Assembly (NCBI GenBank): GCA_010093815.1
Contig: ML996577.1
DNA from: Pseudovirgaria hyperparasitica
Lineage: Eukaryota
DNA length: 64,000 nt
Strand: one strand, 5' to 3'
Positions 24,975 to 60,800 of the stretch are shown here, one piece after another. A program made the position numbers and the translations under genes. Each line of letters opens with the position of its first letter. The first letter of the stretch is position 1. The notes below the pieces were generated by a model. The model did no database searches and was not told where the DNA came from. It was given only the letters and a program-made list of their open reading frames with translations.

Positions 24975-25745
24975 CTACAAGGGTATGTGTCCACGCTGTT
25001 CTGGTGTCATAGTTGGCTCTTTAATCGATTTGCGACCCACTGTTCCCCTTTTAGATCCTCTACTTGAGTGTATCGGAATCTGGGTGCCGAAGGCATTCGA
25101 ATTGCTTCTACGCCTCGACGACGGTACTGCCGAAGAGATCAATCCACTTCTACCACTGGATGGCGGTACGACAGAGGATTCTCCCCTTCCGGACGTCTGT
25201 CCGCCGCCATATGAACTTGGAACCATAGAGGACAATCCTCTACCAGACATCCGTCCGCCGCCGTGTGAGCTTGGGACGATAGAGGACAATTCCCTCCCAG
25301 ATAACTGTCCGCCACCGTATGAGTCTGAGACCGTAGAGTACAATCCCCTTCTAGATACCTGTCTGCCCCCGTATGAGCTTGGGACGACAGAAGATACTCC
25401 TCGCGCACTGCGGACATTGTTGTTGATCGTACTGAGTCCGTCGGGTTGCGCTGAACCCCTGTGCCACATGCTTCCAAAATTTCGGCAGTCAGGGAATGGA
25501 TCCGGCGCATAGGCCACTCGTACTCTCTGGGTGATACAGGGCGCTCCGAACGGTGTGGTTTCTAAGCAGAGATATCGCATTTTTCGAAATTCGGGAAGAA
25601 ACCGGAGTAGGTGTCTTGTTGGTCTACAGAGAGCACAGCACTCGTCTGCCCTGATTAGGCTAATAGGAAGCCACTCTCCATTCAGGGTCAATCCATATGG
25701 AGGTGGGCCGGGGTAAGACACCATGCTATCGCCATAGGAGGACAT
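24975..25745 (-). CDS. Hypothetical Ser/Gly/Arg-rich repeat protein
   Basis: 256-aa ORF with four 18-aa repeats; a TATA-like CTATAAA on the minus strand near 25955 favours this strand. Confidence 0.5.
   Translation of the reverse strand: MSSYGDSMVSYPGPPPYGLTLNGEWLPISLIRADECCALCRPTRHLLRFLPEFRKMRYLCLETTPFGAPCITQRVRVAYAPDPFPDCRNFGSMWHRGSAQPDGLSTINNNVRSARGVSSVVPSSYGGRQVSRRGLYSTVSDSYGGGQLSGRELSSIVPSSHGGGRMSGRGLSSMVPSSYGGGQTSGRGESSVVPPSSGRSGLISSAVPSSRRRSNSNAFGTQIPIHSSRGSKRGTVGRKSIKEPTMTPEQRGHIPL
25165..25402. repeat. 54-bp imperfect tandem repeat (about 4.4 units)
   Basis: Unit encodes SSxVPSSYGGGQxSGRGL on the minus strand and GTxEDNPLPDxCPPPYEL on the plus strand. Confidence 0.85.
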
Positions 25746-38912: not shown

Positions 38913-39119
38913 ATGCAGCAACCAAACATTCTAGTTCTGCTCGTCGCCATTATGATCGGTACATCACTTGCGGCTCCAGTACCTGATGGTATGTATATTG
39001 AATCTGTGGAAGGATATAGCTAACAGGTAGTAGTTGTGATTGACGACATACACTCTCAAGAAGATGACACACCACCAGGCCCAGCACCTGACGACTACTT
39101 GGGAGGATTCTTTAAATGA
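38913..39119 (+). CDS. 53-aa secreted peptide, candidate RiPP precursor: MQQPNILVLLVAIMIGTSLA-APVPDVVIDDIHSQEDDTPPGPAPDDYLGGFFK
   Basis: ATG at 38913 with a hydrophobic signal ending SLA|AP. Intron 38989-39033 has GTATGT, GCTAAC and TAG, and splicing keeps the frame to TGA at 39117-39119. Absent from the ORF track because it is split and short. Confidence 0.75.
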
Positions 39120-39377
39120 ATTAAGTTATGGATGTGTACGATAGGGCTCGAAGCTTGCTTTGCTTACGAGAATGGTGATCTGTACTTTTAAATGATTTGA
39201 TGATAGCTCCGAAGGCTCTGAAATAGAGTACATATTTTTGCTAATAACATTTCGTGATCTTCCGCTCACAACCTAACTCAGACAAGGAGGAAAATACATG
39301 CACTTTCACTATCGATTCATTGAACATTCATAGTCTATGTGTACAGGTACATACTCGTACTAGCCATCGAACAACAA

Positions 39378-40267
39378 TCACTCCTCCCCGGGCCTACTCG
39401 CCCCATTGCCCGTGATCCAGGGCGGCGTCGGGCTCCCGGTGGCCCTGAAAACATACCCTTCTGGACAGAACTTGTACTTCTCAATCTCCGGAAAGCCCTT
39501 CGTCTCTCTTCCGATGTCTCTGTAACATGCTGTATGGCTCCTTGCCCAGTCCTCAAGCTTGTCCCAGTTCCTGCACATGCGCGTTTGCATCACGCCTGCA
39601 ACATTCTTTTTGGAGAATCCTGAGTAGCGTGGCGTATCATCGGCGTTGCACAGTGTGTCCTGGCGGAGGGACTCTAGGCAATGGAGATTGTGCGCGAGAC
39701 CTTCTTCGGGGTCGATGTCGATCTGCTCGTTGTTGACGGCACGGAGCAGCGAGCGGCGGATGTATTGCTGTTGGAGTCGTTGAGTCACACGTGTTGATTT
39801 TATGGAATGACGATGTGACATACCAAACAGTGTAGATTATGGTATCCGTTTAGTAAATAGATCCCTTTGTTCCCATCCCATGGCCAATGCTGCGCTTGCG
39901 GAAGCATGCGTCCTTTAACCCAGTCGTGAGGCAGCGCAACAATCCCTGGATCCACAACCCATGATTCCCATGCAGCATCTGCAATTGAACGATTTGGATG
40001 CGCAAAGATTGTGTCGTCACGATATGGTGTTGGGACGTCTCTCTCGAGCTTTGCGTATAGGCTCCGGTCTTTGTTTGTCACCTCCCTATCTGTGGCTTGG
40101 AAAGCGCTGTATGCCCACAGCGCATTTCCAACGGCTGAGAACACTGTGATGAGAAGTAAAGCTCGAAAGGTCCAGCTGTCGTTGTGAGTTTCATAGCGGC
40201 TGTGTGTTCCTTGTGCCGTCTCATCATCGGAGTGTAATGGTGTGTATCCTTTGCTATGCGACATCAT
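39378..40267 (-). CDS. UstYa-family (DUF3328) oxidase, 277 aa, 2 exons
   Basis: N-terminal TM helix, ADAAWES, two HxxHC motifs (YHNLHCL and AHNLHCLESLRQDTLCNADDTP) and RMCRNWDKLEDWA; intron 39823-39768. Confidence 0.93.
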
Positions 40268-41024
40268 GTTTTGCGATGGGCGTGCCCAGTAATGGTCTTC
40301 TTCTGTATGATGATATGAACTGTTCAATATACCGTCAGGTATGGAAGCAGTATGCACTATGATTCAGATACGTGGGCGCCACACTTTCCGGCAGTTTTTA
40401 GAGACCCGAGTGACGTTCTGCATAACACGTAGGACATGCTGATCGCCCGTCAAGCCCCATGAGCTAACTTCTAGCCGGATCGAAGATAAGACAAGTGTAT
40501 TTTTGGAAACCGAGTACAAGATTTGCAGTATAGGGATTAGCCAACAGCTGTCGGGGAAATGGGCTGCCCGTTAGAGCGACTGGCGTTCACTGCCAAGCAC
40601 CTCGGGCCGCTCAACAGCGCCAACGAAGTCGTCCAGCACCGTCACGCTGCCTGCGCCACCAACATCATCCCCTCTCCAGAAAACATACCTCCATTTCTGG
40701 ACGGATCGATCCAACGTGCTTCATTGTTATACATCGCTCACTATTGATGTATAACACAAACAAACTGACTGATGATTAGGCCAAGCCACTGACGTTTGAT
40801 CTGCGAACAGGGAACCGCATCGGGGACTTGGAAAGCCTTGTTCTAGTCTCGCCGAAAGGTGGATTCTGCAATGGCACATCACCAAACAGTTGGTCTGAGT
40901 CCCGAAACAAATATGGTCACTAGCTTCCTTTTCCCATGTTCGATATAGAGAGGCTCCCGACCACGTTGTATCCATCCTGGCAACGGCACCTCCCGCACGC
41001 GATCTCCACGAACCGCAAGTCAAG

Positions 41025-43425: not shown

Positions 43426-43525
43426 AAAAAAATCTGTAATCTCTTTGATTAAGTCCGTCATCCTTAGTGCAGGGGCCGAGCTAATCTTCTCTGTATCGTT
43501 TCATATTGACTAAGTGCCCGAAGGC
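43426..43525 (-). ncRNA. U6: U6 spliceosomal snRNA (variant sequence)
   Basis: Minus strand reads GCCUUCGGGC...GAUACAGAGAAGAUUAGCUCGGCCCCUGCACUAAGGAUGACGGACUUAAUCAAAGAGAUUACAGAUUUUUUU. It has the 5' stem-loop, ACAGAGA box, AGC triad, ISL and T7 terminator, plus a TATA-like TAATATATT 23-31 nt upstream. Confidence 0.92.
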
Positions 43526-46044
43526 GAAGTACATCCAATTTTAATAGAATATATTATGCAGATTAAAGAACTGCGGATAGTGGGACACTGTTTGGTACTA
43601 GCCGGGCACCCGTAAAGGTAGGTGCTGGAGGTGAATGTGGCCTGATTTGGGAGCCTGTGCGCGCTATTGGCTGCAGATCTATGACTACACTGACACTGTT
43701 ATGAGCTAACTTGAATTAAAAATGAGTTGCCTTGACAGTTTTCCATCGCTAGATGACGGGGCATTGCTTTGCAGTGATCTGGGTTTACGCCACCACTGAA
43801 GCGTTGGCTAAGAAGGAGAGACACACATACAATCTCGGCTGTGTCCACGCGATTGTAGCGATCACAGATTAGCTGAAAGAGCGTAGTCATGAACCCAGGG
43901 ATTGGAAGAAGAAATCAATCACAGTATCTGGAAATGGAAGTCTACCGAAATGTACATTGTTTCTATATCTTGCAAAGGCTATACCTTGTTGACTCACTGT
44001 ACAGAAGTTATTCTACACGTACGTACTATAGGCTTTCTTGATCTGCTATCTTTTCTGCATTTCTAGCTAATTACAATTATCCTGTCGACTGCTATGGATG
44101 ATGGAGGTCATGCCCATCGCGCAGATATAGTCCTCACATATGTCAAAACCTGGAAGAAGTTGATCGTGCTGCGAGAGCTCTGATCAAGATCGCTTTCTTA
44201 CTTGATGTCTATGCTTCTGGCTACGATCTCTCCATTCTGGCTATGAGTTCTCTGATGTTGTGTATCGGAGCATGTACGTGATCGCCAAGGAAGAAAATTG
44301 CTTGCTCTGTAATCTGTATGTTGTAGTGGACCTCTTGGGACTACAGAATGAGAGTTCAAGGAAATGAGGAGCCTACTCAATCTTTAGCTAGTTCAAAGTA
44401 TACGTTCTTGAGAAGTCCAGGTTTCATGGGTACTGACCTCCCTAGCACTATGCGCTTGCTTGTGACATCTCGCTGCTTTTCGAAAGGAAGGTATGCTGCG
44501 AGCATGTTCAACATCTCTCTCACTCGCTCGCCCATGTTGTTTGTTCGTGGGCTTCCTGTGTTCCCCTGTACAGTCGGTCAAGGGGGAGTTTAGAGGTTAG
44601 ATACACATAATTAACTTTGTATGCAGCGTAAATATAAAGAGTGGACTTATCGAAGGCCCTCAATCGTAACCGAATCGTTCATTCTATTCTTACTAGCGTG
44701 GGTTTCAGTGACCTGCTGATTGTGCAATCTGCTTGTGGTCCAAGCGTTAGACCTTGTAATCCCCCAGTCCTTCCTCGCTTCACATTTTGCCCACAAACTG
44801 ATGCACCTACAATCCCACACTCATTTTGGCTTGTCACAATTCCTTCAATCGAAGTTTGTGCTCATCACACCAAATCTTCCTTCCTTCCATGGTTACTAGC
44901 ATCAATTGTGAGTACCACTCAGGGCACGATTCAGAACTTGAACTTCACATTTTTGTTTCAACTTTGACGCTCATATCTGATTCTTTACCACCATGTCACG
45001 AGTAACACTGTTCGGTGTAGATTTCAAGCAAGGCAGCCAAGTCATTACTTCAATGAACTGATCTCAACCGCAATGACAAGGTCAAGACATGTCAAATACT
45101 TGGTACGTATACTCAACGCCACGAATGTCTACAGATTTGACCGTCAGAACCTCAGCTGACACATACTTTGCACTAGATATAGAGGAACTCAACTCTCAGC
45201 CTAAGTCTCAGAATTGGCAAGAGTTCTAGTCTGTTCTTTCAATGAACAGTTCATCCGACAGTCTGGTAGCTAGTCTGCTTGAACGCAGGATCTCAAATAC
45301 AGATTTCTATACCGAGCAGGTAAAGAAAGTGTCAGGACATGTCGAAGAATGTGAGTCCGATATGTACGTCGATGGATTCCGGCCTTTCAAGGTCAGAGTC
45401 TTCTTCAGTCATCATGACGAGCTTCGCTAAATTTGACAGACCACGGCTTGAGCTGAAAGTGCGTTCAAGGATTCTCGAAGCTCCGCAGCTGCACGGAGAT
45501 GGTCTATTCGAGTACCTGAACGGTTCACTTCCGTGACACTTTCGAAAACTGTATTGTGAGGTAGAAAGTTTGACAGATACAGTATGAGTACTTCATCCCG
45601 AAGTAATTACGAAAGCTAAGTTGTCATAGTCAGGTGTACGATGACCAATGCCCAGCAAAGACATCCCAAGGATACTACAAGATCTACAGGCCTGGAGTAC
45701 CTCCCCAAGCGGCCGTCTGCTCACACCCTGTGAGATGTCACAGCCAAATCTGAGTACATCAGGGAACAATACACCCTCAAAATCAGAGTTCCACTTCATG
45801 CACAGAAAGATTTTTGCACGTCGACAAGTATGGTGCAGTGGAAACACACAGTTACGCAGGAATCGAAATATACTGTGAATCTTCTTTCCAATCATAACGG
45901 ACTAAGAAGAACTGGCGTGTGATTGACCACGTGTCATCATCATCTGGCAACCACGTCTTCCTTCAATGCTGAGCCAGCTTTAGACAGGTCCACCTAGCTA
46001 TACCTAGGCTTTCATTCCCTTTGTCTCTCAACTCTTCTTTCATG

Positions 46045-46389
46045 GCGTTTTCGCCACCAAAGATCCTCTCCCACCTGATATATATATATATCACCCTGTG
46101 TATTTGGGTTAACTGCGATGTACACAACAGTGCCGTACTTGTCGTTGCGGTTGACCGCAAACGGCGAACATTAGTGATAGCCAGAAGGATGGCTATTGAG
46201 ACATTCGCTTTGTCTCTTAACTCTTATTTCATGTCTCAATAGCCATCCTTCTAGCTGTCACTGGTGTTCGACGTTGCGGTCAACCGCAACGACAAGTACG
46301 GCACTGTTGTGCACATCGCAGTTGACCCAAATACACAGGGTGATATATATATATATTAGGTGGGAGAGGATCTTTGGTGGCGAAAACGC
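46045..46389. repeat. Long inverted repeat (fold-back): about 160-bp arms and a 26-nt loop
   Basis: 46045-46204 is the reverse complement of 46231-46389 apart from a few differences, mostly transitions. Confidence 0.95.
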
Positions 46390-46755
46390 AATTGGCGGCC
46401 TCAACGTTGATTCATCGGTCGATGTCAAAGCCATCGAGGTATGTGGACACTGAAATCCTCGTCGGAGAGGTTCTCCGCCATGACTCGAGTCATCTGAGGA
46501 AGGGGACTGGCCTCGGTGGCTAGTCCCACTGTGAGCAATATGAGTCCGACTAAAGGCCATCACTTGTGCCACTCAAAACACGGTGATGGTCGTGCTCGCA
46601 CACGATTGGAGTCCCTTGAGGTCAACCGAGCCTAGCAATTTTGTGGTCGTCGCCGCGGTGTATAAAATAGCAGGACGATAGTGGAGATCTATTCGCCCGA
46701 TAGTGACCGATACTATCGTCCTGGCGACTATCACCGCGGTGGCGACAGAGAGGAC

Positions 46756-48747: not shown

Positions 48748-50993
48748 TGTGACTTGGAGGAAAGGAATGGAGATTCGAAGACAGCTAGAGATTTGATAGC
48801 AGAAGAGTGTTAAAAGGTCCAAGAGAAGGCTGGGAGCGACGATGTATAGCTTGTTCTTGAGTCTTTGGGTGCAGACAAAGGTTTGAGTGAAAGATTATGG
48901 TAGTAAGAGCCGATATAGACGTATTTTGTGCGTTGTCGAGACTGGGGGAATGGTTATTGTGTAAGAAAGTCGATATAATTCTGTGGGTGTCCGTGCGGGC
49001 CTGTTGCCCCTAGAAGCTGATGAGAAATTCAATCACACACTCCTAAGCTTCACTACCTCCATCTCAATCATCCATCAGCCATACTCATCAAGAACCATCA
49101 GAGAACTTCCGCTTTAAGAGGATCGTTGTTCATATCTTTATCTCGATATCATCTCCTTTCTTCTCAACATCATTTGAGACACCTTGTGAGAAACAGTAAT
49201 CGTCTTTGAGCTTTGTCTTTACTAAAGTCAAGGTTTCGATCATTCAAGGCTTGTCTCTGTCCACTACGGGTGTGCATCATCAGTCAGGTGGCCTTTGATA
49301 CCGTGTGTGTGCTCATTGAAGAACACCGTCTTCTCACCATCTTTGGGGTGAGGTATGAGTTTTTCATGAAGGTAGATCCAGCTTCGGCATGATTGGTGAG
49401 TTTTTCCATCTCCAGCGACGCACAGTTCTTGACTTTCATTCGACCCTCACCTTCTTACATCAGGGATAAGAGACTGGTAACTGATAAACGAGATAGTAAA
49501 GCTCTCAGCTTCCTCACTGCCATCTTGACGTCCTTGGCTTCATCGTCAAGGTAGACCAATCACCAAGCAGCAAGGCCGTGACAGGCTCGATGATGCGGAG
49601 CAACAGCCTACCAGCTAGTATCATAGCCTTCTATTCAAAGACCACTGTCTAGATCGTGTCGAAAGGCGAAAATCATACCTGGCAGGTTGAGCGGAGCCGA
49701 AGATCGACATAGTCTGTCAAACTGCATCTTGGAAGTCCGCTGTGCCACGATTTTAATCTTCAAAGTGCTACAGAAGGCTGCGAAACATAACAGACAAGTC
49801 TTCTGTGCACTTCATTGAGGTTTTATCATCGTCGATACACGGATCCGCTTCGGTGCAGTGCTCCAGAAGGCGAAATGATCGACTAACCTCAGCAAAGGAT
49901 CACAGCTGAAGAGTTTCACACTAGTGTACTTAAGATAGAGTCTTTGGCTCAGTGCGTGGAGATCTCTATGCATCATGTCGGTGTGCAGGCCTCCATGGCA
50001 TCACTACCTTGTCGCCATTCCGTACCTTCGGCTCGGAAGAGGTTAAGGACACCCGTCACCACCCAATGGTAGCGAAGACGGTGTCTCAGGCCCAAAGAGC
50101 GTACCGTGTAGCCTAGAGCTCACACTATCAAGTGACTACCTCTGTCATTTTGAAAGACATCGGGATATGTTCGTGAGGTACATCGCTTGCGAGCGTGTCC
50201 ACTCCTTTGTCAGACTGGATTGACTGACATCTTAGCCAGACATGACCCCTCCGCCAAGCTCTTTATCCCATATCAGTATTTTGAAAGGATTTGGAGTCAC
50301 GGTATGATTCTCCTAGGCAAGAATTGCAGGTGATCTGATCGCCAGTATTGAAGTCGACATTACCCCAGGACTCCAGCAACAAGGGATGCTGAGAGCGAGC
50401 CGCATAATGGATGCGTCGCTAAATGCCTTGTTACAGAAAGAACACCCCAACACACCTATTGAGCTCATGCCTCGTGTAGCATCTCAGAGCCTTCTAATGG
50501 GATTTATGTCTCCAGGGGTCGCTGCCAGGTATGTGACTTCCGAGATTGACCGGTTGGAAGGCAGGCGCATACTAAAAGACGTCGAAGGTAGACGTGACTT
50601 TGTGACCTAGAAGGTATACTCAAAGTCGCCAGTATAGCCTTAGTACGTACAGATACTCAAACGTCGTGCGTTCAGAGAACGATGGCTCCTAGATACGGGG
50701 CCAATCATCGCTATTGAATACCAACATTTAGTCCTGCCAAAAAGCAGTCATGCGTGGACAATTGACGTTTCAAACTGCCCGCCACCACAAGCGGATGTCG
50801 AACTATTGCCAGCACAACAAGAGCTAGGATTCGCACGACTTACAACGGGGCCACCGTGAAGGCTCTACAGCGAGTGAACGGTTGCTCGTGTCCGTCCGGA
50901 GCAAGTTGAGCTTTGCGTGTGCAGGAGAGTGTACGGGTCTGTACAATGACGAGCCGCATGACTACCTGACGAACATGACGGCGCATTCCAGTG

Positions 50994-51995
50994 TCTTCCG
51001 CAGCTTTGGAGCGCGTGGGCCTTTTTTTCCGTTGAGTATTGCATACCTTCCGCAGCTGTATAAGCGCGTGGGTACCCTGGGTCCTTGGAAGAGATTGTTC
51101 AAACCCTTCCGCAGCTATCTGAGCGCGTGGGCTCTTTGCATCTCGAAACGAAGCTTTGTCTCCCTTCCGCAGCTTTTGAGCGCGTGGGTTCTTGTTCCAT
51201 CTTGTTGAAAGCATCGAATACCTTCCGCTGCCATGTGAGCGCGTGGGTCTTCTTTTGTATTTTTTTGTTGAGTCTTTCCACATCTTCCGCAGCTATCTGA
51301 GCGCGTGGGTTTCCTTCTGTCCTTCTCGCTTGTATCTTTGCAAACCTTCCGCAGCTATCTGAGCGCGTGGGTTATTCTGCGATTCACATGAAGATTCGAG
51401 TACCTTCCGCAGTTTTAAAACGTGTGGACTCTTCCGCCGTCTTGTTAGAAGTTTTGTAACCTTCCGCAGCAGTATGAGCGCGTAGGACTCCCTGTATCTT
51501 TCTTTGTTTGAGCCTTCCAAGACCTTCCGCAGCTTCGAGCGCGTGGGTTGTTTCTGCATCTTGTTTGGTACCTTCCGCAGCCATCTGAGCGCGTGGGTCT
51601 GCTGGGTCCTCCACAATACTTCTCAATACCTTCCGCTGCCCTGTGAGCGCGTGGGCTTCCTTGTGTCTCTTTTCGTCGAACCTCTGAATACCTTCCGCTG
51701 CCTTCTGAGCGCGTGGGCTCTCGCGCCATTCTGATAAAGTTGCAATGCCTTCCGCAGCCATGGGAGCGCGTGGGACGTTCATGTACCATTGGATTACCAG
51801 TCTGTCGCAGCTCCTTTAGCGCGTGGGCTCATTGTAGATGTTGAACCCATATTCTTTCTGGGCATTTCAGTTGCGTGCTTGGATTACGAGTCACCGAAGT
51901 CTTTACCTTACGCCGCTATAAGCGCGTGGGTTTGACGTTATCTTCATCTCGTTCAAAGTCATCTCGCGCCTTACGCAGCTTTCTGAGCGCGTTGG
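50994..51995. repeat. Regularly interspaced array of about 17 copies of CCTTCCGCWGC-N3-5-GAGCGCGTGGG with 23-38-bp dissimilar spacers
   Basis: Repeat starts at 50994, 51046, 51105, 51163, 51221, 51283, 51345, 51403, 51460, 51523, 51571, 51629, 51691, 51748, 51801, 51906 and 51969; decayed copies lie near both ends. Confidence 0.95.
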
Positions 51996-54900
51996 CCTTC
52001 CCCCTCTTGTGTTCAAGGATTTGGTTTCGATACTTTCTCAGAGCTGAACATGTGAGAAAATCCTCTTCGAAGCAGATGAATGGTATGGAATCGACGACAA
52101 GGCGACCAATCTGCGGCTGATATCATTAAGCTGTCGGGCTTCATGGCTTACTCCTGTTTCTCTCATGAATTGAAGTCCACTATTTGACGTACGGGAGGTC
52201 CGGGAAAAGTTCTCTAGGGCTTTTGTCGGTTCGGCTTCTTTGGTTCGTCTTCCGAGCCGCTTTCAAACATGTAAAGAAATTTGATTGTGAGCGCTAAGGA
52301 GCTATTGGTATGAGAATTCGGATCTCCGAGAACCTTTTGAGGTATCATTGGGTGCGAGCCAAGTGCAGTGGTAAACCCTGCGAACTTACGGTCTGTCATA
52401 TCTTTGACACAGGATTCGTTGTACAATAACAGTCCGCACTCAGTAAAGCTCTCTTGGGAAGCTTCGTTAAAGGTGTTTCAATGGGAGAGATTGATCCGGT
52501 ATTGTTCTAGCAGGCAGTCCAGACACTGTAGGACTGGTAATAAGCGTCGTAAGATCCTACTAGGAGCGATATGATTGAAGGATGGTATGTGGAGAGGCAT
52601 CTTGATGATCTAGCGGTCTCCATTTTCGAAGCACGTATGATGATGATGTGCTGCCGAAAGCCGTCCAAGGGAGGTTTTCCACCTGTTATGTGGTATTTGC
52701 TGTCCGTCTTAGTTTCTCCTGGGGCCTCGATAGCTCCCCAGGGTACTTGTCATCATCACCTCTTAGCGGTGCGGACAATGTCGATGATGTGGCCTTGGCT
52801 TACGACTGGACCTCCCAATCCAGGAGCCAACTAACCATCGCGTGCCCCATTCAAGGAGCAATACCCAACCAGTTCAAACGGGTCGCAAGGGTACCGTTGC
52901 TATCGGACGAGGTGATTAGCTTCTGCCCTTTTCGGTATACAGTCCTCGACGTTTAAGCTCAAGGCTAATCATGACTTACATTCTGGTGGGCCGCGATATG
53001 ATCATCCCCGCCTGTATAGGCTCTCCGAACCCCCAAAGCGCCAGAGCGCGGTCCGGATTCATGGCGTGCTCAATCGCCAAACGCAGCTTCCGCACGAGCA
53101 AAAAACGGTTCACTTGCCAGTCTGAGGTGGCAATGGTCACAGGGCGAGTGCCAGATCCAAGCTCCAAGGAGACGATGATCTGCCGTGCGAAGACTCGGCC
53201 ATGGGTCGACCGAGTCTTCTCCCAGACATAAATGTCTGCTCCTGGCCTGCGCACCCAGCGTCGGGCAGTCCGAATCAAAGCAGCCTCCGCGGCTGGAAGG
53301 CGGGTTCTGCGGTGTTGTGTCGACATTTTTGATGGTTGTGCGGTATCGTGCGTTGGATGCTGCGTTATGAGTGTTGACAGAGCTCAAGATCTTTGCAAGT
53401 CAACAAAGCCTGTCACTGCAAAGCTGCACCGCTCCTTAGTGGCCCCACTTTTTGCAGGACCAGTATGGAAAACTTTACCACATGCTATGATATCCCCTCT
53501 CAAAGGTTACGGAGGGGTAGGGCCTTGGCCTGTCGTTGCACAGATTCATTCTTACAGGATACATCTTCATGTTTGAGGATATGCAAGCAGCATATTATGG
53601 AACCCCTATACAGCAACATCCGACAGCCAGTTCCGCCCTTGCCGTGTATCAGCACCCCTTCGATGTTTTGGCACCTAATGCTGCGGTGCCGAGAGTCTAC
53701 GTCCAGAGCTCACTAGCGAAGATTGGCAGCACTTGAAAATGCCTCGCCAATATCCAGACGTAAGTTCTCTTCGTTGGTATGCTTCTCGATTTGACCTTAG
53801 CACTGACACCTCCGGAATAAGCCACCGGGAGCATGTTTCCACTGTGAGCACACTCCTGATGAGCTTCACTCCTGCGTTCGTGGCCGCTGCCTCCTAACAA
53901 CGGATCTCTCTGATGTCGTTGCCGGAGGAAACTACATGCCCGTGGTGTATTAATAGGGATCCATACACTTTCAGGCGGATACCAAGAATCTTGGTATCAA
54001 AATCTGTGAGCGGACTTGGTGGACCATAGGAGGACGATACAGCATCCGAAGGAGAATAAGTTACCGTCACACTCGTATTAATTTCAGGAAGGCAGAGGAA
54101 TATGCATGGGATTTAATATACTGTTCTTATATGTCCCCAGAGGCTCTTCACATTCCATCAGTATAGCAAGAAAGCGAATATGAGATGCGTATGCATGCCA
54201 CAGCATATGGATGGTAGTCCTAGTAACACCTAAGCGTGGAAATTACTTCAGAATAAAGCAAATTATGAGTCTCCCACAGTCCACAACTACGAGCGATCAT
54301 GTCCTCATAGAAGTCCAAGAAGCTTCGCAAAATCGAAGCCTTGGGATATGTCTCATACATTCCATTTTAGACCTGCCTCAAGGCAAAACTATCTTGAATG
54401 ATCTCGCATACCATGTCCAACAAATTATGATTACTGTCGCGCCATGAGCCTAGTATAATATCCATACGGCAGCACATAGTCAGGACTAGCCAGCTCTTCT
54501 CGTACCAGGGTAGACAAGTCCTGCCAACCGGTCAGATATAAACTTCCTTCCCCTGATCCGCTGGATGCCATTATGTGTTACCGAAGGAGCTGTATGCATC
54601 CACGACCGTCTAGGAAACTAAACTTTACTCCAAAGGCAACAACGCAGCACCTGTTCAGTATTCCTAGAGATAGAAGTGCCATGTACAATAGCTACTTGAA
54701 GTGAAGCCTCTGCTTTGGATATCTGCAACTCTCGTGGCGCGGCGTACGCTCGACAATGAAAACGTATGAACAGCTCGCGGTGGCCTCCAGACTAATGTTA
54801 GCTTGAAATCGTCTAATATATATTTTGTCCTACCTGTCTCTTGTCTTAAAACCTTATTTCTCAGGAAGGTGAGAGACCTCAAGTCTGGCGGTAAAAGTAC

Positions 54901-55536
54901 ATTGTTGTTAGGGAGAGGGTCACCGAGAGACCTTGAGCAGCTGGCAACGGCACCAGTATGTTATTATCATAACCTCCAGATGTGGCTGTGATTCAAACGT
55001 ATCATGGAATGAATTATCACTAAGCAGGATATTTCAAGCTTCAAACATGACCAAAACACAGATGCTGATACACTTCTGCAATACCGCACGCACTGAGCCG
55101 TGATGATACATGGCAGCCCAAATGTAAACTATCATCCGTGTTTCCACAAAAGTCGTCCATCGCCTCTGAACCTCTGGGAGTTACGCCCAAAAGGCATCAA
55201 GAGCCACAGTATCCCTATCATCAGCGCCTCCATGAGCCTAAAGCATACGTCACTGCCAGCCTCCTCTTCAAGACCATTTCCGCTCCCTGATCCCAGTCCT
55301 TCCACAGACGCTAGGCTTCACTTCCTTCCCAAGCGAGATGTTTCCACGCTAGTACAATCCGAGACATCAGAATCGATTCGAAGGTCGGCGATGAGGAGTT
55401 GCCCAGGTCAAGTGAACGCTAGTCCTCTCTCAGCTCCTCATATTCGATCCGATGTTGATCCATGGGCTTACGTGATCCTGCCTCCCAGTCTATATAAACA
55501 GCTGCTCCCTCTCTCGCTCCTACACCTTTTTTCCTT

Positions 55537-55816
55537 ATACTGTAGTGGTACTCATCCAACAAGTCGCTTCGGTGGCTTTCGTTGGGTGGCCCGCACCTTG
55601 CCCCCGGTGCAGGTATTCCCCTTGTGGGCTATTCTTTGGAACAAACTTCCCCATTTCCCTTCCTTTCCCTTCCCCTTCCCCTTCCCCTGCCCTCCGGTCA
55701 GAAGTGACCATAACTACTTGGTCAGCAGTGACGCTAAACACTCAATCTTTGGAATCAGCTGAGCTTTTGCTTGGCACCGTGTGGCTTGTACCATTGCACT
55801 ATCGCAGGCCAACGCG
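55537..55816 (+). ncRNA. Putative Sm-class small RNA unit A (possibly two RNAs or domains)
   Basis: TATATAAA at 55491, then a pyrimidine tract and AUAC start. A cUUCGg-capped hairpin with G-U pairs spans 55553-55588. Sm-like sites are AUUCUUUGGAACA (55631) and AAUCUUUGGAA (55744). Confidence 0.45.
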
Positions 55817-56598
55817 AACTCTTTTTTTCATTGTCATTTGGCCTCTGTGCTGATTGCGAGGAAGAAAATCCTTCATCTGATTGCTTTACTACTTTTTGGT
55901 GTGTGATCTTGAAGACCTTTGAGCATGTTGATAGCCTTTACCTTCGTCGTAATAAGAGAATATGATGAGAACATGATGCAAAGATCCATGTAAATAGCTG
56001 AAATGAGAGTGCAAGTACAAGGAGAAACATTGCTCAAGCTCATACCTACTGAGTCTGAATCTATCGCACACAGCTCAACAGCTCCAGTACGATATGTTCG
56101 TGTCAATCGCCCTTCCTCCTTCCCATAAGATGATTTCGCAACAGTGAAAGCAGACGGATGACACAAGGTCAGAGAGCTTGTACTTGAAGTATCGAATAAT
56201 GCACGCCCTGAGCCACCCTGCGCTTCAATGGCCTACATCGATGGACTTGAAACAGATTTCCACCACACTTCGGACCTGACGCTCGCAGAATACCTCCTCG
56301 AACGCCTGTTAGTTCAATGGGAACATATCCTTTGAAGAGTACACAAGCTCCAAAGCAGCTGGCCAAGCACTCCAGAAAAGCATCTCACTGACCGCGTAGG
56401 TCCTAAATCCACTGGCTTCGGCTCCAATAACGTGACCAACAACTTCCAGGCTCGGCCCCCTGCAAACAGGCAGCACGGATCGACATACCGTAATAGCAAC
56501 TACATGCGGCTAGCTTCCCTGGATCCAGGATCCAGATTATCGTTCCCCAACTATATAAGCTTGCCAACCCCCGCCCTCTTTCATCCTTTTTTTTCTCC

Positions 56599-56765
56599 AT
56601 CGTGCAGTGGGTCACTCACCCTTGGTAGTGCTAACTTTTGGCCTATCAAGGATGCAGAAAGTGTCTCTGAGTGTGCAGTGAAGAATTGTCTGAGCGCACC
56701 TCACTCTCTCTCGACATTCGTGTCAGAGAGGAATTTTTGGAACATTTTAATCGTTTGGGATTGTG
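56599..56765 (+). ncRNA. Putative Sm-class small RNA unit B
   Basis: TATATAA at 56552, AUCG start, hairpin 56620-56651, and a UUCG-capped hairpin 56706-56730 directly before the Sm site AAUUUUUGG at 56732. Confidence 0.55.
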
Positions 56766-57723
56766 GGAAACTCTTTTTTTTTCATTGCTGTCTCGGCCTT
56801 TGTGCTGGACACAAGGGAGAAGCCCTCTGATCATTCGTCTCTTTTTCATTGCTGTCTGGCCTTTGAGTTGGACCCAATGAAGAATTTTCTCCCACGGACG
56901 CCCAATTTCTGCCTATTGCTGAATCTTTGTGCGTCGTATGGCCTACGTCACATCCACGACTTACAGTGACGATGAGAGTCTCAAGCGTCTGTGGAATGCT
57001 TGTCATCTCACTGCGTCTCTGCTGCGTTTCTAGACCCGAGTGGAACTCATCTCATAAGGCATGGTATAGTACAAGATAGGCTGTCAATGGAAAGGCGCAG
57101 GTGGATCGCTGTAGAGGTATTATCGTTGACTGTCTCACTAGAGTCTCGGTGCGTTAACGAAGCTCAAATATATAGCTAAGCGATGTCAAATTTGGTCATT
57201 GACTGAGCAGGAGGCGCTATAGAGACACTGATTCATAGAGTGCTATTAGGACTTGTAAGAGCTTGTATTATCGGTTCAAAGGCACATTTCGTCTGATCTA
57301 GTGGGAGCGATTTAAATTCTGCAAGCAGATTCGCTAGTTACATACACACCTTCACCGTCACTGTTGAATCAAGGAACAACCTGGGCAGTGCTGGACCTAC
57401 GAGTTATGCTTGAAGCTACCATGGATTACAGGACAGCAGGTAGCAATACCAATTATGTACATCTCGATATACTTGATGAGTATTGCTGTCGTGCAATGTC
57501 CCAGTCTCGTCGTCTTCTCACCGACTCTCACGCCCGCCTGGCCCTACGTGCTTGAGTATCCACAATAAACACCCATGCTATGACAAATCACTAGTTGCTG
57601 TGCCAGTGAGTGATGTGACTAAAGCGGAAGTGTCACGTGAATCACCCGTCCAGATGTAGCTAGTCTCAGGTCCAACGACTATATAAACAGGCCTTCCCCC
57701 TCCATCTCACCTATTTTTTCTTC

Positions 57724-57826
57724 ATCCGTTCCGGCCTCAGTGCTGGGATAAGTGCAGAGGCAACTCCTCCAGCTCCTGCTGGTCTTCGTGATCGCCAGGG
57801 AATTTTTGGAACACAATCATGGATTG
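57724..57826 (+). ncRNA. Putative Sm-class small RNA unit C
   Basis: TATATAAA at 57680, AUCC start, a GCCUC/GAGGC stem, a UUCG-containing hairpin closed by CCUG/CAGG before the Sm site AAUUUUUGG (57801), and a small 3' hairpin CAAUC/GAUUG. Confidence 0.55.
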
Positions 57827-60800
57827 AGAATACCTTACTTCTTACCTTTTTCATTGCTATTTGGCCTCTGTGCTGGATACAAGGAAGAAACTGTCTCTTC
57901 TTGGTCTGTCTTGAAATTTGGCGTTGAGCTGCACCTATCTCGTGTTTCTGACGGGCGTACCACGGTGAAGACGCTGCTATTGAAGGAGTGTGAAGTCCCG
58001 ACTGCCCTGTCCACGTATATCATTGCAAGATCTTACAATACATCAAGCTACTTTGAGCTCCTCTTGCCTTAAGCTGTTTCCATATCAAAACGAAGCTTAG
58101 CCTTTGCCAGTGGGACGAAATAACTTCTCTTTACATGAAGCCCTTCCACGAGGCAAGTCCAGTTCGAGATCTTATCACTGGAAGAACAAGTGGCGGCAAT
58201 CTCTTAAGCTTTCAGCGTTTCCAAGAATAAGCTATGCTAGTTTTAGAGCCCACTGATAAGAAGATTGTGACCGCGAAATGACAGTGGCGAGTGTGTTTGA
58301 GGTTGTGAACCTTCAGACGAGATGTCGAGACCTTGAAGTATAGGTCAGCCAAACCACCCAAGTCTCTACGAAAATCCTGTGGAGAATAGACCTAACCTTC
58401 TACGGATGATAGATGAGATCAATAGCCGATGAATTATGACTTGCCTGTACTACGCTTTGGTCAGAGCAAGCTTTGAATCAAGAACGAGACCACGACAGTC
58501 TCTAGCAGATCGAACACTCCACCTACGAACCGACATAGCAGAGAAGCAGAAATAGCTAGAGATTGAAGCAGATACTAGCTTGGACATGAAACATACACGC
58601 AGAGGCAACACGGCATTCCATGCAAATTCAAAATGTGCGTTGTAACTACGCCTACAATTTGGACCCACTGTGGCCAGATCCGCACATAACATCAATTAGT
58701 GGCGTACTATGGGAACCAGAGAAGATGTAAGGCACGGAAAAAACGCTGTAGCACTGGTATTAATGGCATAGTGCAAGAACTTGAGATCTGGAGCTGCACA
58801 GTACAAGATCTTAAGACAATGTGTACGGTGTATCGCTATCATATGAGAAAAGATACCACATGTGCGCTATCTTGCCTGAAGCAGTGACATGCCACGCCTC
58901 GTAGGCTCAAAGCATCGCCATCTTTTCTTGCAAGGTTTCTCTGTGTACCGCCCCAATGTAGAATGTACAGGACAGTCTACGTGCCAAAAGATATGATTCC
59001 GTATTACACTAGCCCAATGCATTGTTCCATTCCGACTCTTTCTAGCAAATGTGGTTTCCATGCTGTGGGTGGTTATGCAGAATGAGGCCCGTTTCGAAAT
59101 TGCGGAGAGCAAGGTGTCTTTGGTATCTACGGACATGTTTTAACATATCTCTTTACATTCGCAAGTGTAGAGTATAGGGACAACATGACCGTTGTGAGCA
59201 GGCCGCGTGCAGCAGCTATTGAGTTATGATTAGCGAAAAGACATGAAGCACCCGGCCAAGAGCATGACTTACAGGCTAACACACCGTTTACACCCCGATG
59301 GCCATATAGTCTATGTTGCCAATCCCTAGTAGTATCCTATGCACGAGGTGCGCCGATAGCTAAGATCTGTGCTTCCTCGTTGGCAGGTATACCAAATGTT
59401 CTGATTTCTGCGCGGCCACAGCGCCCATTACAGCTATGCCCCTCTTGCACGTCCCGCGTATGTATTCATGGCTTTGTCTTCGCATTGTCCAATACTACGA
59501 GCACAGGACTTCCTCCATCGAAAAATCTCTTTCTGTCGTCTTTCCAGCCCCAATTCCCATATTTGGTCGCACTCTCTTCGCATCTTAAGGCGAACGTCGT
59601 AGTCTGCAGCACGCCAAAGCAGTCGTCACCAAAACAGGGAATGCCGCAGCGAGCGCTTCATTGGCCAGCTAAGCAGGCTTCTTTCTTCCTTCGGAGCAGG
59701 AACGAACCATCGCCAAACCATGGGCGCAGCCCCACGTAGTCCAAAGCTTATTCCAACCACTGCAATGCTATGTCTCTTGAGCCTCCGCATATCGATATAT
59801 ATGTATTGGATGGGGGCGAGTCTGGAATGCGCAAGGCCGCCGGCATGAGGAAAACGGCGGGCTTTGGGTGCTCGAGGGGCAGGTCCTACGAAGGCGAGAC
59901 TTCTGTGTTGCAATTTGGCGCAAGTGACATGGCGCATGAGAGCAGGAAGAGACTAGAAGTAAATTAGCTACCATATGATCGCCTTTAACTGTATGCGCAA
60001 CCCATGTTGGTGCGTGATGACACGACTGGCTTGAGTCTGGACGGCCCGCCTGAGCGGTTTGCGGTACATTTCCAAACGCCAATAAGGAATGGCCTCGTTT
60101 GTTTGAGCTTCTCTATAAGCGCATTGCCTGTATTGATTGTACTTGTTTGCTCAGCGTGCTGCATCTCCTGATACGCAGCCGACTGATCCAGCTTTGGGCC
60201 TCCATGCTCTTGCGCATCCCTCTATCTGGCGTGCGAGCAGGCCTGATGTACGCCGAGGGCAGTGTTCGATGCGTCTCTGCTCCTGATATTTCTTGCCCAT
60301 CCGACGTAAGGGTCTCGCCTTCGGAGGGCATCGTAGTAGAGATTAGGATGGCATTATCATCCTAGCGCCCTACTCTATTAAGAATTTAGTATAGGCGGGT
60401 CTCACAAACGTCTCGGCGCTATTCTTTTCATCATAGTATAAACTTACCCTGACACGATAATTGCCATCGATGCCAAATATCTTACGATCATGAGGTGATG
60501 GGGACCCTACTCATCTGCGAACGGCGAGGATGATACGTCTGCCGCATAATCTTGGTGTTTGTATAAGTGTCGAAGTTGGGAATGCAAGGCGCAATCTTTG
60601 GGACGTCAGAGAAGAACTCTCGCCGGCTGGTATACGGATAAGCAGGAGTATGAATCGTGCCTGCTCTTGCAGTTGCAGTTGCGGCCGAGTGCTTGGATTG
60701 TTTTCATATGCTCTTATTTCTACCAGTTCCGCTGCTGTAAAGAGGATTCGTAATTCGGCTTGTGTGAAGAGGTCCGTCCGATTGACCGAGGGATCCATTG

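Follow-up and report, generated by a model that had tools for sequence, protein, structure and literature searches.

What does a tandem array with the dimensions of a CRISPR do in the genome of a fungus? The question is raised by a locus on Pseudovirgaria hyperparasitica contig ML996577.1, of which a 64-kb window, i.e., the whole stretch of DNA referred to below, was analysed. The initial annotation of this locus described it as CRISPR-dimensioned, and that description holds for size and for nothing beyond size. The array is examined here with respect to its architecture, the unequal conservation of its parts, its coding potential and predicted fold, and its likeness to known systems.

Architecture and genomic setting

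Parsing by half-motifs gives units in which two 11-nt halves flank 3–5 variable nt and a 23–38-nt linker follows. The array and its main parts are the following.

50994..52029, + strand: whole tandem array of 17 head-to-tail units, each with a 27-nt bipartite core and a T-rich linker
51100..51549, + strand: higher-order repeat with a 240-nt period (four units), 1.9 copies, 75% matches (Tandem Repeats Finder)
51345..51371, + strand: core of unit 7, representative; 11-nt half, 5 variable nt, 11-nt half
51403..51459, + strand: unit 8, decayed; 5 of 22 core positions changed
51801..51905, + strand: unit 15 with its 78-nt linker; from the parsed units, read by eye
51906..52029, + strand: units 16 and 17, which close the array on the right; three core changes in each

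Units 1–9 start at 50994, 51046, 51105, 51163, 51221, 51283, 51345, 51403, and 51460, and units 10–17 at 51523, 51571, 51629, 51691, 51748, 51801, 51906, and 51969. The start-to-start spacing is 48–63 nt with one exception of 105 nt. The initial annotation had counted about 17 copies of a 27-nt motif with 23–38-nt spacers and a period of 48–63 bp, and these figures are reproduced with the addition of the single 78-nt linker and the single 105-nt spacing.

The array is statistically solid and is a real tandem repeat with a conserved core. A strict pattern of the core has 12 matches in the window, all of them inside the array, against an expectation of 0.00 from 100 dinucleotide shuffles. A covariance model of the core, run over the 64 kb with no filters, recovers the 17 units at E ≤ 1.5e-7, and its next best match has E = 1. 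Departures from the core consensus are confined to 21 of 374 cells. The choice of the + strand follows from its T-rich linkers and from the greater stability that the predicted core hairpin has on it.

Decay is clear at the right end (units 15–17) and in the internal unit 8, and the left end is nearly intact; of the decay formerly ascribed to both ends, only the right-hand part stands. The 78-nt linker of unit 15 probably hides one further decayed unit at ~51863–51883, as judged by eye. A short word at 51787–51803 is repeated at 51879–51895 (also by eye), and the core covariance model has no match in this linker at E ≤ 10.

The window is fungal in content, with a U6 snRNA, UstYa and fungal-rhodopsin domains (39.8–42.3 kb), and GT..AG introns of 45–65 nt in RNA-like contigs. 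From ~43 kb to the window end, codon-usage scores are low, unlike in the gene-dense first 42 kb, and two scans of the ORFs at ~43–64 kb found a Pfam family above the cut-off in 0 of 25 and 0 of 82 ORFs, respectively. No relatives were found for the flanking ORFs 55097–55759 (+) and 52979–53383 (-), and ORF 50317–50607 (+) has no Atlas look-alike. The array sits in a stretch of ~20 kb without recognisable genes, and the interval 43000–64000 may be a lineage-specific region. The ORFs scanned between 39.8 and 64 kb (27 + 82) include none of a Cas-related family, the only matches being UstYa, fungal rhodopsin, and sub-threshold ones; the reported absence of cas genes is confirmed over this range.

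In each of two DNA runs, one contig crosses the array (46.4/46.7–56.0 kb) with 0 differences and no second mapping place. The two runs share a sample that may be where the window came from, and in these DNA contigs the array locus behaves as single-copy. A repeat search of the window found no terminal inverted or long direct repeats around the array. RNA-like contigs from one sample (runs X3 and X4) cover 36–42.7 kb, 46–48 kb, and the region from 55.3 kb; their blank at 48.7–55.3 kb is no evidence on expression of the array.

Several other features of the window were recorded in passing. The U6 spliceosomal RNA gene lies at 43426–43525 (-) with 72.8 bits, and the branching of DNA contigs at the gene edges suggests that U6 occurs several times in the genome. 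The arms of a near-perfect long palindrome at 46042–46392 measure 119 nt and are 97% complementary, and further arms of 45 nt are nested. Contigs at this palindrome, both DNA and RNA-like, break or 'go back 443'. The depth of one RNA-like contig is 2134, and the palindrome is possibly a foldback element or a locus for hairpin RNA. A ~1-kb unit is repeated in tandem at 55490–57901, in about three copies (direct-repeat families D6, D9, D11, and D13, with a common TATA-like word). Their ORFs are without Pfam family and without relatives, and RNA-like contigs show expression from ~55.3 kb. A UstYa-family ORF at 39803–40363 lies within the expressed gene region 39327–40563 (-), 11 kb from the array. 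It is adjoined by a small spliced gene at 38913–39116 (+), with a 45-nt GT..AG intron at 38988–39032 and a contig depth of 132 (X3). The product of the small gene is apparently a ~53-residue peptide with a signal-peptide-like start, and it may serve as precursor to a peptide whose modification depends on UstYa. Finally, a tandem repeat at 25182–25391 has a period of 54/108 nt, a multiple of three, with 78% matches and no indels, and is probably a coding repeat inside an overlapping ORF.

Conservation of core and linkers

The two parts of the unit differ widely in conservation, with an all-pairs identity of 0.897 for the 17 cores versus 0.541 for 16 linkers. The 240-nt block duplication provides four paralogous pairs, u03/u07, u04/u08, u05/u09, and u06/u10, in which the parts can be compared directly. 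The cores of these pairs match at 80 of 88 positions (91%), and unit 8, the decayed one, accounts for five of the eight differences. For the linkers the count is 82 of 118 aligned positions (69%), with 16 additional gap columns. The contrast between core and linker is significant (Fisher p = 2.4e-4, or p = 4.9e-7 with gaps counted as differences), and the true contrast is larger because the linker alignments were optimised. In paralogous unit pairs, the core evolves slower than the linkers, in line with the earlier proposal that the motif is the more tightly constrained part.

This difference, read from paralogous units of a single genome, argues for purifying selection on the core as the cause of its slower evolution. 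Selection is favoured because homogenisation limited to 27 nt is hard to square with long conversion tracts. Fungal conversion tracts cover hundreds of bases and are usually far longer than a unit of this array.

The linkers have a composition of A 0.18, C 0.24, G 0.17, and T 0.41 on the + strand, and the AT skew along the array is -0.33 to -0.39, which bears out the T-richness assigned to the spacers at the outset. They are T-rich on one strand throughout even though their sequences are nearly randomised. This T-richness could be plain inheritance from the ancestral unit. T runs are present in the linkers and are prone to slippage.

The linkers are relatives of one another, with a weak but significant likeness. 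Their mean pairwise identity (n = 16, with the 78-nt linker dropped) compares with 0.505 +/- 0.008 in composition-matched shuffles, and the top of 100 shuffle means is 0.527. A 62-nt period of 4.6 copies and 71% matches is nested in the 240-nt repeat (Tandem Repeats Finder), and two-unit blocks share 68–72% identity (direct-repeat family D3). The array grew by duplication of single units and of blocks of 2–4 units. Related linkers together with block duplications make it a diverged minisatellite and not a set of acquired spacers, and the view of the initial annotation that old duplication and not foreign acquisition produced the array is upheld.

When the linkers were searched for targets elsewhere in the 64-kb window on both strands, 15 of the 16 matched no better than 40 shuffles. 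The remaining one has a match at ~58073–58103 (24–25 of 31) that beats all 40 shuffles but has a blastn E of 0.079, and it was treated as chance.

Coding potential, predicted fold, and competing explanations

The array is non-coding. The reading frame shifts between units, only 6 of the 16 spacings being divisible by three, which is the chance proportion, and it shifts also inside the core through the 3–5-nt gap; the first judgement that this is not a coding repeat is sustained. Open frames of 109–150 residues do cross the array on the minus strand, because the minus strand is A-rich. Pfam assigns none of the five ORFs in the array to a family. Sequence-database searches covered two of the three minus-strand frames, and for the third and the plus-strand frames the scan was against Pfam alone. 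The 143-residue minus-strand frame found no relative. The 127-residue frame matched a 6857-residue protein (P0001), which was dismissed as an artefact of the 10-residue repeat of P0001 itself.

Relatives at the nucleotide level were sought in several collections. Rfam has nothing inside the array, either at the gathering threshold or at E ≤ 10, and ARAGORN found no tRNA in the array. In a metagenome scan, the full core pattern occurred in 11 loci with one match each, on contigs of 53–73% GC, with no adjoining cores and no arrays, and these matches are chance. A scan of a viral collection with a shortened core pattern gave at least 120 stretches; among the matches listed, 80 loci have one match each, with no array among them. 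Among the literature matches listed, there was no description of the motif or of such a fungal array.

On the + strand, the core with 2–3 flanking bases is predicted to fold as a single imperfect hairpin, and RNAalifold independently returns the identical structure. From base to tip, the predicted hairpin has a lower stem of three pairs, an internal loop of 2x1, an upper stem of six pairs that carries a one-base bulge, and a loop of 4–5 nt. The bulge corresponds to the A/T-variable position of the core, and the loop to the variable gap. Unit 7 with 3-nt flanks (51342–51374, +) has a predicted energy of -11.5 kcal/mol (z = -2.07). Three single units are only modestly more stable than shuffles, with z values of -2.07, -2.59, and -0.40 for the + strand; those for the - strand are -1.29, -1.78, and -0.64. 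Averaged over 17 units, the predicted energy reaches -9.97 kcal/mol for + versus -8.68 kcal/mol for -.

The distribution of core changes is consistent with this model. Six unpaired positions (bulge, internal loop, and loop edge) hold 12 of the 21 departures, and the 16 paired positions hold nine. Pairing survives in seven of those nine. C becomes U opposite G in three cases, a C-G pair is replaced in a compensatory manner by U-A once, and G-U and U-A each arise once. In unit 8, two changes would form the compensatory C-G to U-A pair and one a G-U wobble. The C-to-U changes opposite G keep pairing only in a + strand RNA. Overall, 91.1% of cells are paired in the hairpin model. Covariation is 0.106 versus 0.088 +/- 0.010 in shuffles, with 26 of 500 shuffles as high, for a structure that was derived from the same sequences. 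Cells changed on both sides number four versus 1.9 in shuffles, a value reached by 34 of 500, and four of the ten hairpin pairs are invariant and hence uninformative for or against the hairpin. In a 1.08-kb + strand context, the mean pair probability of the hairpin exceeds 0.5 in only 4 of the 17 units. Across units, it is 0.263 with native linkers versus 0.172 +/- 0.046 with shuffled ones, and 0 of 25 shuffles reach the native value. A 411-nt piece of the array is no more stable than its shuffles on either strand (z = +0.94 and +0.76). The core hairpin on the + strand is a weak lead from structure prediction, not a finding.

The initial annotation had offered, among its readings, a multivalent protein-binding RNA or DNA platform, and this still appears the best of them. 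The array is tentatively regarded as a candidate multivalent binding platform for a putative binding partner, with a chance that falls somewhat short of even. It is an old single-copy non-coding tandem array, grown by duplication of single units and of blocks of 2–4 units, in which selection would preserve the GC-rich bipartite core of 27 nt almost unaltered and leave the pyrimidine-rich linkers to drift in sequence and length. About 17 copies of one recognition element would be offered to a sequence- or structure-specific binding factor, with the linkers acting as flexible spacers. We infer both binding as the function and RNA as the acting level. A + strand transcript would be slightly favoured, in which U-rich linkers carry GC-rich cores that pair into small hairpins or with one another. 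Recognition of double-stranded DNA, as a homotypic cluster of transcription-factor sites, would come next. Three features tip the balance slightly from double-stranded DNA to RNA, namely linkers that are asymmetric between the strands, changes compatible with wobble pairing, and tolerance of the gap; one rigid DNA-binding protein would not easily accommodate halves whose distance ranges from 3 to 5 nt. A partial resemblance of the core halves to an AlcR-type zinc-cluster site, an MluI-box/APSES core, and an Egr-like zinc-finger site is presumed and carries no weight here. A narrower version, in which the array is the working module of a fungal lncRNA on the principle of Xist repeat A, is distinctly doubtful; some 17 + strand cores would then gather many copies of one RNA-binding protein and serve as a silencing, tethering, or decoy hub for the gene-poor, orphan 20 kb around them.

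A neutral minisatellite without function is a serious competitor of the binding platform, though unlikely. It holds that the core is kept uniform mechanically and the linkers are free to mutate and slip. The mechanism, given the same chance as part of the same reading, would be short conversion tracts or unequal exchange starting in the only segment that can still pair, perhaps with GC-biased repair. The locus is plainly a diverged tandem repeat with higher-order periodicity in a stretch without recognisable genes, its linker T runs slip easily, and unit 8, units 15–17, and the probable dead unit show that cores can decay, all of which suits neutrality. On the other hand, conversion tracts as generally known should homogenise whole 58-nt units and not a 27-nt core, and homogenisation does not predict that core variation lies mainly at positions unpaired in the hairpin model. 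If the array is a mere minisatellite, it is a useful warning that ordinary tandem duplication gives eukaryotic loci the dimensions of a CRISPR. The guide-RNA precursor considered in the initial annotation, in which the core is a processing or promoter signal and each 23–38-nt linker a guide-like RNA, is improbable. Its dimensions and its repeat-with-hairpin architecture fit, but the linkers are related to one another, they are low-complexity and T-rich and would make poor guides, only the one chance-level match was found for them in the window, and there is no Rfam family. The suggestion that the array is either a piece or a product of a mobile element (subterminal repeats of a DNA transposon, for example, or hairpins arrayed as in a Helitron) is marginally less probable still. 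Imperfect hairpin repeats occur in DNA transposons and Helitron-type elements, and the surrounding 20 kb is orphan sequence. This suggestion fares poorly against the single mapping place of the locus in the DNA contigs of both runs, the lack of bracketing terminal inverted or long direct repeats, the lack of any further core in the window, and the count of transposase domains above the cut-off (0 of 82 flanking ORFs).

Two explanations would return the array to coding sequence, and both are highly improbable. One is a decayed, frameshifted coding repeat, e.g., a Kex2-processed or RiPP-type precursor linked to the UstYa-family gene, a case that the initial annotation had named as a possible refutation in the form of a frameshifted repeat-protein gene. 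The UstYa-family ORF 11 kb away and the open frames on the A-rich minus strand speak for it. Against it, the periods and the 3–5-nt gap break the frame as described above, the core is conserved at every codon position and hence beyond the amino-acid level, and neither the Pfam scans nor the database searches with two of the minus-strand frames returned a genuine relative. The other takes the + strand as a succession of very short exons with short introns between them. Here the first half of the core resembles a 3' splice site at its end, with pyrimidines and then CAG (in 13 of 17 units, by eye), a GT-initiated hexamer resembling a 5' splice site follows the second half, the linkers are pyrimidine-rich like fungal introns, and the real introns of the window are similarly short at 45–65 nt. 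However, the AG is missing in 4 of 17 units, the would-be introns of 38–53 nt include several below any intron observed in the window, a branch-point consensus is absent from most linkers, and the exons would be only 10–12 nt with no common frame. The multivalent binding platform is retained as the preferred reading, and part of the total probability is assigned to none of the readings. If the core is a selected recognition element, the array would be a compact natural case of multivalency in a filamentous fungus, with 17 near-identical sites on drifting linkers, and would give a testable handle on a fungal nucleic-acid-binding factor.

Comparison with known systems

CRISPR: The likeness is one of dimensions only, with a ~27-nt repeat that is predicted to form a hairpin and interspaces of ~30 nt. 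In contrast, the host of the array is eukaryotic, and the repeat carries a variable insert of 3–5 nt and has no fixed length. The interspaces are interrelated, of low complexity, and without convincing matches elsewhere in the window. The array is not CRISPR-like in mechanism.

Minisatellites: The array shares with minisatellites its head-to-tail non-coding units of 10–100 nt that are homologous over their full length, its duplication of units and blocks, and the keeping of a short box. Ordinary minisatellites have units that are homogenised as wholes, and the contrast between core and linker is far sharper in the array.

Xist repeat A: The parts of PMC5742192 that concern repeat A describe conserved 26–27-nt GC-rich cores and U-rich linkers of variable length in 7.5–8.5 copies. 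A small hairpin of the core and/or duplexes between cores are proposed there, and the repeat is put forward as a multimerisation platform for protein binding. As far as those parts go, the array is an architectural match, as it too has GC-rich 27-nt cores and linkers that are T-rich on the + strand. It differs in that there is no sequence relation, it is fungal, it has 17 copies, and it is known here from DNA alone. The resemblance would point to a possible way of working and not to family membership.

Fission-yeast meiRNA and other DSR-bearing RNAs: Passages in PMC4077057 and PMC3352096 describe meiRNA as a decoy that lures Mmi1, a protein that recognises its target RNAs via hexanucleotide motifs. 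On this description, meiRNA offers a fungal precedent for an RNA with many copies of a short protein-recognition motif that serves as a decoy. The motifs described there are scattered hexanucleotides, whereas the array has regular tandem 27-nt cores.

The multivalent-site design is so far best documented in mammalian Xist and in the fission-yeast decoy RNAs. On present evidence, the array is best filed among the known non-coding tandem repeats with a conserved box, and an RNA module resembling repeat A is a minority chance.
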